Of a stretch of DNA of 38,183 nucleotides, positions 12,720-13,484 are shown in pieces. Made by a program: the position numbers and the translations under genes. The notes beneath the pieces are model-generated. The model was not told the DNA's origin. It was given only the letters and a program-made list of their open reading frames with translations, and did no database searches. Within the stretch, counting starts at the first letter, position 1. Each line of letters starts with the position of its first letter. Source of the DNA: a virus (lineage: Duplodnaviria > Heunggongvirae > Uroviricota > Caudoviricetes); the IMG/VR virus record IMGVR_UViG_2713896906_000008, one strand, 5' to 3'.

Positions 12720-12834
12720 TTTTATCGTCCTTTCTGTCTCTTCGTAGTTGCCTTGCTTTTGAATCATCTTCAATAACGATCCTTCTTGCAGGTGGAGTAG
12801 GCCGAGGAGGTGGTGGCGGTAACGGTTTGGTCAT
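12697..12834 (-). CDS. polyproline mini-ORF 1 (45 aa, MTKPLPPPPPRPTPPARRIVIEDDSKARQLRRDRKDDKNDRTQKS)
   Basis: ATG preceded by AGGAGA 6 nt upstream; start overlaps stop of the 216-aa membrane protein gene (TAATG). Confidence 0.45.
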   Translation of the reverse strand: MTKPLPPPPPRPTPPARRIVIEDDSKARQLRRDRKDDKNDRTQKS

Positions 12835-13484
12835 TAAGTTCTCCTGACATTTTCAATAGGTATTATCAAATAGTTAGGGTCGTTATTTTTCCGCGGTGAT
12901 GCTGCATCTAAATCAGCTAAAAGAAATATGACTACTGCTGCGATAATTGGAATCCATGACCAGACAAGATACTTTGTTGACTCAAATAGTTTGCTGGAAC
13001 GTTCCTCATTGATATTACTGTTCCAGCTAGCACACTCTCTGATTTCTTGATGAATAAACTCCCAAAGTTTATTATCAGGGTTATAACTTTCATCGTATGT
13101 AAGTTCATTGTCATCGCAATATTTTTTATATTTCACCTCGTAACTAATCAGATCTATGTGATAATCATGCAATGCTTTAGGTGCAGGGCAATACTTAAAT
13201 TCATTTCCCCATATGACTTGTTTCAACAGAATTGATGATACAAGAACTAAGCCAAATGAAATTGCGGTACATAAAAATACTAGGCAAGCTAGCCTTGGGT
13301 GGGATTCATAAGATGTGTTTTTGGCGAGATAAGTAAGTATAGTTGCGGTAATGACAACTAATCCGAATTCGGCTTGAGCGCGAGTATGTATCTTGTCTTT
13401 ATTCTCAATTTCTGAGAAATAAAGTTTTTCGTAAAATTCTAATGCTTTATCCTTTTTCATTTTTAGATTCAGTGTGATGTCCAT
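12834..13484 (-). CDS. hypothetical 3-TM membrane protein (cargo between cos and Q)
   Basis: 216-aa ORF with three hydrophobic helices and a charged Cys/Tyr-rich central domain; AT-rich. Confidence 0.65.
   Translation of the reverse strand: MDITLNLKMKKDKALEFYEKLYFSEIENKDKIHTRAQAEFGLVVITATILTYLAKNTSYESHPRLACLVFLCTAISFGLVLVSSILLKQVIWGNEFKYCPAPKALHDYHIDLISYEVKYKKYCDDNELTYDESYNPDNKLWEFIHQEIRECASWNSNINEERSSKLFESTKYLVWSWIPIIAAVVIFLLADLDAASPRKNNDPNYLIIPIENVRRT

Follow-up and report, generated by a model that had tools for sequence, protein, structure and literature searches.

Why does a P2-like prophage carry a small membrane-protein gene, followed by a run of short polyproline-encoding reading frames, between its cohesive-end site (cos) and the portal gene Q, and what might these genes do? 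We addressed this question in a 38,183-nucleotide stretch of viral DNA (IMG/VR record IMGVR_UViG_2713896906_000008; hereafter the window), which we read as a P2-like prophage. A first-pass annotation, made from the letters alone, had described a protein with three transmembrane (TM) helices in this interval, had left the adjoining polyproline open reading frames (ORFs) as filler, and had suggested that the protein excludes other phages or aborts their infection. We find that the membrane protein belongs to a widespread uncharacterised family and that, together with proline-rich microproteins, it forms a four-gene cassette in phage variable regions. The cassette would constitute a self-contained accessory operon (moron) of a membrane protein and its cognate microproteins, for which phage exclusion or abortive infection in the lysogen is the likeliest role that we can propose, and one that we hold somewhat tentatively. 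Our confidence is high for the anatomy of the cassette, intermediate for a role in defence and low for the detailed mechanism.

The membrane protein is paired with proline-rich microproteins

A full profile search of representative protein clusters (50% identity, E <= 0.001) recovered 956 clusters of the family across phyla, 271 of which score at or below 1e-10. A word-indexed protein search with the resulting broad alignment added few new members and no Pfam-annotated relatives; no family member bears a Pfam annotation, and no Pfam match recurs consistently among the relatives. The broad alignment was too diverse for scanning loci, and a 13-sequence sub-alignment was used in its place. In all 39 loci that could be read, from Enterobacterales to a Campylobacterota metagenome-assembled genome (MAG), the membrane protein is accompanied by a proline-rich module, which takes the form of one to three free microproteins encoded downstream, of an in-frame C-terminal tail, or of both. 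The same downstream microproteins as in the window occur in Cedecea, in Pantoea, in Enterobacter-like metagenomes and in 17 IMG/VR contigs. Divergent members also have the pairing: two at 31-32% identity (loci L024 and L025) are each followed by one proline-rich ORF, and the Campylobacterota member (L008, 25% identity) by a single one that overlaps the stop codon of the membrane gene.

The three microproteins of the window, which we call a, b and c (Table 1), share a common plan. An N-terminal M-[S/T]-x-x-x-K is followed by a proline-rich (PxxP) stretch, then by P-x-x-P-x-x-R and a hydrophobic-x-hydrophobic-[E/D] motif, and the three copies correspond to three subtypes that recur in the family (RRIVIEDDSK, RLVRESYG and RQVFDHDD). 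None of them contains cysteine or a signal sequence. Runs of 5-7 consecutive prolines are found here and of 6-12 in relatives, but an unbroken run is not required: in L019 and L020 its place is taken by PPSSPQPPQAP, and the relatives P0023 and P0025 have PxxP alone. Pooled ratios of non-synonymous to synonymous polymorphism (pN/pS) are 0.47 for orthologues of a (10 loci), 0.53 for those of b (8 loci) and 0.31 for those of c that carry R-x-[AV]-F-D-H-D-D (11 loci). As judged from their conservation and translation signals, the mini-ORFs are therefore not filler; they are genes and partners of the membrane protein, and their presence is the defining feature of the family.

The number and length of the microproteins vary between close relatives. 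In microprotein b the proline run differs in length, with cluster members of 58-64 residues and with six prolines in L010 against seven in the window; the length range is consistent with in-frame variation of the repeat that encodes the run (Table 1). In three IMG/VR loci that are 75-77% identical (L014, L015 and L016), no proline-rich ORF was detected between a and c. Because b thus appears to have been lost in this lineage, the copy number of the proline-rich genes would seem to shift over short evolutionary distances.

Free and fused forms of the module

Many family members are 250-310 residues long. Their additional 60-100 C-terminal residues consist of a poorly conserved helical linker ending in a proline-rich module, and these modules include the same three subtypes as the free microproteins. 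Nearly all of the long proteins have a methionine followed by a small residue just before the module. Of 11 internal ATGs in fused genes for which DNA was available, 10 had GGAG, GAGG, AGGA or AAGG 4-16 nt upstream; at control positions within these genes the frequency of a Shine–Dalgarno motif was 7.2% (binomial 3.8e-11). In three more fused genes the internal-start position is occupied by TTG. Because these ATGs carry Shine–Dalgarno motifs, the proline-rich peptide appears to be translated separately even when it is nested in frame within the membrane gene. In some loci a fused copy occurs together with a single free one (L029, L030, L031, L033, L036, L039 and L040); in others the membrane gene is unfused and two or three free copies accompany it (L032, L035 and L037).

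The same small protein would thus be a separate gene in some lineages and an internally initiated, nested product in others, a point of relevance to microprotein annotation. Most of these small genes escape gene callers. Of the three in the window RefSeq includes one, b, which PGAP calls from an upstream start as 12582-12767; the open frame of b runs upstream to 12773, and that of c to 12628.

Candidate expression signals of the cassette

The first-pass annotation had postulated a promoter for the cargo without locating one. We aligned the spacer between Q and the membrane gene from 12 divergent loci and found, just past the terminator of Q, a nearly invariant TGnTATG(T/G)T in 10 of the 12, with diverged flanks. 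A two-hexamer promoter scan of the window did not report this element, which has no -35 sequence; sigma-70 extended -10 promoters do not need one. We infer that the conserved TGnTATGTT is a candidate promoter of the cassette, with a transcript start near 13484, which would give either a leaderless message for a 216-residue membrane protein or, more generally, a 23-nt leader before an internal start at M9. What stands of the postulate is therefore a conserved promoter-like element, and that it drives transcription is a prediction from its form.

The membrane-protein ORF itself is present as described, with three hydrophobic segments, but its start was probably placed too far upstream. In 15 of the 16 closest homologue clusters the protein begins at M9 or within a few residues of it, and PGAP calls a protein of 208 residues, making 13460 the likelier start; an identical 208-residue protein is on record from Escherichia albertii. 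No Shine–Dalgarno motif precedes either candidate ATG. The microproteins, in contrast, have strong ones, and the start of a is coupled to the membrane gene through a TAATG overlap. A programmed frameshift that would fuse the membrane protein to a was considered and rejected by inspection, given the strong Shine–Dalgarno motif, the TAATG overlap and the lack of a slippery site. A search of the cos–Q interval against Rfam found no known RNA family.

The cassette occupies an expanded cos–Q interval

To delimit the cargo, we joined the ends of the P2 reference record and aligned the resulting cos junction to the window. Base 1 of P2 cosL corresponds to window position 12317, and the two sequences agree at 37 of 45 positions, the conserved left arm among them; the cohesive-end sequence reads GGCGTGGCGGGGATACGAG in the window and GGCGAGGCGGGGAAAGCAC in P2, and about 32 nt to the left of cos are likewise conserved between the two. 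This alignment confirms the assignment of cos that had been made from the sequence. From the end of cos to the stop codon of Q the window has 1209 nt, in keeping with the earlier estimate of about 1.2 kb, and P2 has 167 nt, so that the P2 interval is indeed far shorter, although longer than the 0.1 kb or so first given. The P2 interval contains the annotated terminator tQ and nothing else. The cargo is AT-rich, as had been noted, with a GC fraction of 0.383 compared with 0.515 for Q and 0.566 for P. Q is labelled 'phage portal protein' by PGAP in strain WS0115A (99% identical). The strong terminator described between the cargo and Q is also borne out: a hairpin with a 7-bp stem, including 5 G-C pairs, is followed by the T-run TTTCTTTTTT at the position relative to Q at which tQ is annotated in P2.

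Cargo on this side of cos had been presented as unusual, which does not hold. In the P2-like prophages of Ecol_AZ147 (L002) and MLI104K1 (L043), a cos-like sequence directly follows the DinI gene, and in the stretches fetched all of the hotspot genes lie on its Q side, the opposite of P2. Because of these two prophages, we conclude that cargo between cos and Q is common in the E. coli P2-like prophage group. The Q-side genes there are an AAA ATPase with an S8 peptidase, and ASCH, ATP-binding and Abi-like genes.

The cassette is variable cargo

Within 5426 complete E. coli genomes the cassette is present in 6 (region 99% identical), and the adjacent cos flank (window 12300-12375) in about 1120. 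One further locus, L009, is 100% identical to the window (IMG/VR contig IMGVR_UViG_2740892218_000010). The comparison of this junction across related prophages, which the first-pass annotation had proposed, shows the cassette present or absent beside the same cos flank and the cargo across cos varying. WS0115A has an identical cassette and different genes on the far side of cos, so the cassette travels independently of its neighbour, and cos in P2-like prophages is flanked on either side by cargo modules that are independent of each other.

All close homologues immediately follow Q in the same orientation. A cassette convergent with Q is found in L036, L039, L040, L042 and L046 (Sodalis), and the distant P2-like phages with this arrangement have a portal protein 56-64% identical; in the Sodalis locus the membrane gene stands alone between gpA and Q. 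In L035 and L037 the cassette lies between the baseplate gene gpV and the tail gene gpS. In Salmonella it is found outside phages, in an integrative element with an integrase and a TraI_2 relaxase. Searching 50,697 deposited phage genomes by tblastn with two different family members gave no match, so the phage-borne cassette is known only from prophages and metagenomic viral contigs. Because of its rarity, its varied orientation and sites and its occurrence outside phages, a conserved virion or lysis role is ruled out, and the cassette is accessory cargo, as had been supposed.

Some neighbours elsewhere fit the guilt-by-association pattern of defence genes. In the Campylobacterota MAG (JAUVCL010000139.1, 2900-4274) the membrane–microprotein pair is followed by a ThsB-type TIR protein (129 residues) and a caspase-family peptidase (324 residues), and in L031 a TacA/GNAT toxin pair and a KAP NTPase adjoin the cassette. 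The pair, the TIR gene and the caspase gene of the MAG lie on one strand with short gaps and may form one larger operon; of two ORFs upstream (357 and 256 residues), the evidence is a sub-threshold helix-turn-helix match and no Pfam match.

Rousset et al. (2022, PMC9122126) described the gpA-to-gpQ interval of P2-like prophages as a hotspot for defence genes, and the cargo tested from it is largely anti-phage. The cassette lies within this interval beside cos and is variable among related prophages. It resembles the P2 hotspot cargo (old, tin and the systems of PMC9122126) in being AT-rich, variable, adjacent to cos and equipped with putative expression signals of its own, but unlike old and tin it lies on the Q side of cos, and its gene content matches no PADLOC model. 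Two current RefSeq accessions do not occur in the available part of the supplementary tables of PMC9122126, a paper that these accessions postdate.

Structure of the membrane protein and a predicted peptide contact

Hydropathy places TM1 at about residues 40-56, a short segment (Kyte–Doolittle peak 2.09 over 15 residues and 1.47 over 19), TM2 at about 64-88 (peak 2.51) and TM3 at about 172-192 (peak 2.35). An AlphaFold2 model of the protein (predicted local distance difference test, pLDDT, 83) has helices at 3-56, 63-92, 102-125 and 136-189. In this model TM1 and TM2 form a hairpin, the N-terminal helix packs with 102-125 and 136-170 into a four-helix bundle, and the third membrane helix continues the last helix of the bundle. 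Conserved motifs are FYEKLYF, WGNEFKYCP, C-x3-N-x3-N-x2-R and DLDAASPRK. The loop between TM1 and TM2 contains no lysine or arginine, and the N-terminus and bundle contain many; this charge distribution supports a topology with the N-terminus inside and the bundle in the cytoplasm.

Database searches gave little by which to name the protein. It matches phrog_36961 in PHROGs (E = 6.7e-22, residues 9-199), yet that family carries no functional annotation, so the match names nothing; Pfam and PADLOC (both at E <= 0.1) and NCBIfam returned no match. Searches with all four cassette proteins likewise found no real Pfam, NCBIfam or PADLOC match and, in PHROGs, the one unannotated family. A profile search of Protein Data Bank sequences returned nothing meaningful.

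We also modelled a fused relative, P0043, with AlphaFold2 from a 44-sequence alignment (mean pLDDT 86). The linker scores below 50 and is disordered, and a block of the tail (241-250) has a pLDDT of 89. The sole three-residue strands of the model are YRG (88-90), in the motif WxNxYRGxP just after TM2, and RNI (247-249), the R-x-hydrophobic element of the proline-rich module, and we infer that these two strands pair. The juxtamembrane motif has the family form W-G-N-x-Y-K-G-x-P. The equivalents in the window are F96-K97-Y98 of the membrane protein and RRIVI, RLVR and RQVF of the microproteins. With the N-terminus inside and the bundle cytoplasmic, this putative docking motif would lie in the cytoplasm alongside the free microproteins.

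Proposed function and its alternatives

A role in exclusion or abortive infection is consistent with the position in the gpA–gpQ hotspot, with the defence-gene neighbours of relatives and with their weak profile similarity to known effectors. When 150 family relatives were scanned against PADLOC, 8 matched PycTM (best E 2.8e-6), 3 the reverse transcriptase (RT)-associated SLATT effector (best E 7.3e-5) and 3 the CBASS 2TM effector. Like these effectors, which damage the inner membrane in abortive infection, are small helical proteins with an N-terminal helix, a TM hairpin and further helices, and are found in defence islands and prophage hotspots, the membrane protein of the window combines a TM hairpin with further helices. 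Unlike them, it has no linked signal enzyme in the neighbourhoods inspected and no nucleotide-binding domain, and its partner is a proline-rich microprotein, a kind not described for those systems. A second likeness is to membrane-toxin/small-antitoxin pairs and to lambda S105/S107, in that a membrane protein is probably set by a small co-encoded product, which in fused homologues would come from an in-frame internal start of the S105/S107 type. The small product here differs from that precedent in being the C-terminal 35-45 residues rather than an N-terminally extended form, in being proline-rich and soluble, and in having no link to a lysis cassette.

In the mechanism that we propose, positions 12336-13544 (-) would be a self-contained operon, transcribed from a sigma-70 extended -10 promoter that follows the Q terminator and closed by a separate terminator ahead of cos. 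Weak translation of the membrane gene would yield an inner-membrane protein with three hydrophobic helices and a probably cytoplasmic four-helix bundle, and strong translation of the three microproteins would supply its cognate partners in the cytoplasm. The R-x-hydrophobic strand of a microprotein is predicted to pair with the juxtamembrane WGNE-FKY-CP strand that follows TM2. Like the PycTM, SLATT and 2TM effectors, the membrane protein would permeabilise or depolarise the inner membrane, and the microproteins would gate it. Given the weak signals of the membrane gene, the strong signals of the peptides and the cytoplasmic docking motif, an effector gated by abundant small partners is the simplest mechanism: the microproteins would be short-lived inhibitors, the supply of which would drop when a phage shuts down host expression. 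Alternatively, they may serve as baits that a phage product removes. In either case, which way the regulation runs, what triggers it and whether the product is lethal are suggestions from anatomy and analogy. If active, the cassette would be a compact (~1.1 kb) new anti-phage system with a regulatory partner unlike those of known systems.

A more far-reaching version, which we consider unlikely, is that the cassette represents a new class of defence in which short-lived proline-rich microproteins report translation capacity and clamp a PycTM-like pore, so that their run-out depolarises the membrane. The clamp may act through the strand-to-strand contact, and the microproteins, hard to translate, may come from separate genes or from nested starts. 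The trigger may be host shut-off or a disturbed supply of elongation factor P (EF-P) or proline tRNA, and three divergent copies may broaden the sensor or harden it against phage counter-measures.

Several observations weigh against exclusion or abortive infection by such a gated effector. The likeness to PycTM and SLATT is weak and confined to few relatives, the window protein itself matches nothing in PADLOC, Pfam or NCBIfam, and structure searches found generic long helical bundles only. Neither in the window nor in the neighbourhoods inspected does a cyclase, CD-NTase or reverse transcriptase adjoin the cassette, so the activation logic of the known effectors is not transferable; for these reasons the relation is a weak one of working like them, not of membership. 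The strand pairing was deduced from the secondary-structure summary of the model alone. There is also a conflict of topology: with three passes and the N-terminus inside, the tail of a fused protein would be periplasmic, and the docking motif and the free microproteins cytoplasmic. A fused copy could then reach the predicted site only if TM3 sometimes stays out of the membrane. The conflict would be resolved by a separate periplasmic role for the full-length tail, by conditional insertion of TM3, or by the fusion being tolerated because the internal-start product does the work. In the literature we found no study of such a system, and nothing relevant on polyproline or proline-rich partners of defence, SLATT or toxin systems. 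Finally, an addiction (toxin–antitoxin) or envelope-modifying role would fit the same anatomy.

In the addiction alternative, the toxin would be the membrane protein and the labile antitoxins would be the proline-rich microproteins; the pair would prevent loss of the prophage, or of any other element that carries the cassette, and would play no part against other phages. The architecture is indeed that of a toxin–antitoxin module, in that the genes are adjacent and translationally coupled through the TAATG overlap, the microprotein ORFs overlap one another, and one candidate promoter and one terminator would serve them all, with weak signals on the membrane gene and strong ones on the peptides. 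The cassette is carried by several kinds of mobile element, and TacAT modules adjoin it in L004 and L031. A chromosomally integrated prophage has little need of addiction, however, and the largely anti-phage character of the hotspot's tested cargo (PMC9122126) points the other way; as many toxin–antitoxin modules are themselves defence systems, this alternative also overlaps with the one that we prefer. We consider it unlikely in its strict form. We are more doubtful still of a superinfection-exclusion or envelope factor that acts at the inner membrane and blocks DNA entry or a receptor without killing, the long coiled-coil and proline-rich tail of fused homologues extending into the periplasm. 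The prophage location and the lysogen-type candidate promoter fit such a factor, as do a first loop without lysine or arginine, suited to the periplasm, and the C-terminus and 60-100-residue tails of long relatives, which three passes from an inside N-terminus would make periplasmic. Yet the free microproteins have no signal peptide or lipobox and hence are cytoplasmic, the internal starts in fused genes would also yield cytoplasmic peptides, the putative docking site faces the same side of the membrane as the bundle, and no similarity to known Sie, Imm or Sp proteins was found in Pfam, PHROGs or PADLOC.

Two further alternatives give the proline runs themselves the leading part. Runs of consecutive prolines are strong EF-P-dependent stall sites. 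The polyproline ORFs, which contain such runs here and in relatives and overlap each other, could therefore be cis-acting translation-arrest regulators that depend on EF-P; or the cassette, which immediately follows the late gene Q and shares its strand, could be a late lysis accessory expressed by read-through from Q. We judge both improbable. The non-proline residues are conserved (R-x-V-x-E-D type, N-terminal M-S/T-x-x-x-K), pN/pS is below 1, flanking residues are kept where homopolymeric proline is not (L019, L020, P0023 and P0025), and the ORFs lie downstream, not upstream, of the only large gene. Between Q and the cassette stands a strong terminator, and relatives are convergent to Q or lie away from it. 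The cassette is outside the late lysis cluster and absent from most P2-like phages, and the peptides have no lipobox cysteine and so are not o-spanins. The microproteins might instead be the effectors, inhibiting translation or DnaK in the manner of proline-rich antimicrobial peptides (PrAMPs), with the membrane protein as sensor, release factor or immunity factor. Microprotein a is cationic (13 Lys/Arg versus 7 Asp/Glu), has 9 prolines in its first 15 residues and contains PRPTPP followed by R-x-I, as does pyrrhocoricin, the sequence of which is confirmed in PMC4797285. However, PRPTPP is found in the window and its nearest copy, L010, and is replaced by PQPTPP in L011, L012 and L013; the region after the prolines is acidic in the family, not basic, so that the resemblance is one of low complexity; and the AlphaFold2 model would put the motif on the membrane protein. 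With the PRP motif not conserved in orthologues and the likeness compositional, we rejected this role as very improbable.

Coordinates of the cassette and its boundaries

Table 1. Features between and including cos and gene Q, by position in the window
Feature	Position	Strand	Remarks
cos cohesive-end sequence	12317-12335	+	GGCGTGGCGGGGATACGAG; left boundary of the cargo interval, placed by P2 cos alignment
Intrinsic-terminator-like hairpin	12423-12454	-	Closes the cassette before cos; 13-bp stem with 7 G-C pairs, then TTATTGTATT
Microprotein c	12488-12595	-	35 residues from MSKNEK start, MSKNEKSNLPPPPPPSKPPTRQVFDHDDTKKKSKR; Shine–Dalgarno tAGGAaaaataaagATG (AGGA) before start
Microprotein b	12582-12719	-	45 residues from MTEHK start, MTEHKNPKKNEAPPPPPPPKPPITRLVRESYGNDPKNRKNKDEQK; Shine–Dalgarno AAGGAcgataaaaATG (AAGGA) before start
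Perfect (CCA)7 repeat	12664-12685	-	Polyproline run of b; Tandem Repeats Finder: period 3, 7.3 copies, 100% matches
Microprotein a	12697-12834	-	45 residues, MTKPLPPPPPRPTPPARRIVIEDDSKARQLRRDRKDDKNDRTQKS; ATG overlaps membrane-gene stop (TAATG); AGGAG 6 nt upstream
Membrane protein	12834-13484	-	Three hydrophobic helices; 216 residues from 13484, more likely 208 from 13460 (M9)
Candidate extended -10 promoter	13491-13499	-	TGATATGTT (TG, one base, TATGTT); conserved just past the Q terminator
Intrinsic terminator of the late P-Q transcript	13518-13535	-	AGCCGCAGAATTGCGGCT then TTTCTTTTTT; counterpart of P2 tQ
Portal gene Q	13545-14582	-	Right boundary of the cargo interval; Pfam Phage_portal E = 6e-18

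Other cargo in the same prophage

The window carries further candidate accessory genes. Just to the left of cos, at 10324-11936 (+), a HipA_C-like kinase gene (303 residues) overlaps a gene for a HIRAN-domain protein (234 residues), and the pair matches A and B of the PADLOC candidate system PDC-M03 (E = 4e-36 each). A 'HIRAN-kinase' pair is listed in the available part of the supplement of Rousset et al. (PMC9122126). In WS0115A the kinase/HIRAN cargo is replaced by other genes, next to an identical cos–Q cassette. Upstream of the pair, at 9754-10308 (+) in the gpA–cos hotspot, lies a gene for a 184-residue protein with a 3'-5' exoribonuclease Rv2179c-like domain (Pfam E = 5e-50).

A third cargo site, at 1134-2859 (-), holds two AT-rich genes (176 and 400 residues) between the integrase (1-1053) and a CI-type repressor (2940-3821); they match B and A of the PADLOC candidate PDC-M18 (E = 5e-24 and 2e-36, respectively). 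At 21934-23199 (-) a 421-residue ORF without Pfam or PADLOC match forms an island of 30% GC between the putative gpS (21473-21922) and gpV (23427-24038), both assigned by eye. The apparently equivalent gpS–gpV site in L035 and L037 holds the membrane-protein/proline-rich cassette. Near the right end of the window, at 35405-35483 (-), is a full-length RybB small RNA (Rfam RF00110, 106.5 bits); the window therefore probably runs into the host chromosome, with the end of the prophage or its attachment site expected to the left of RybB.

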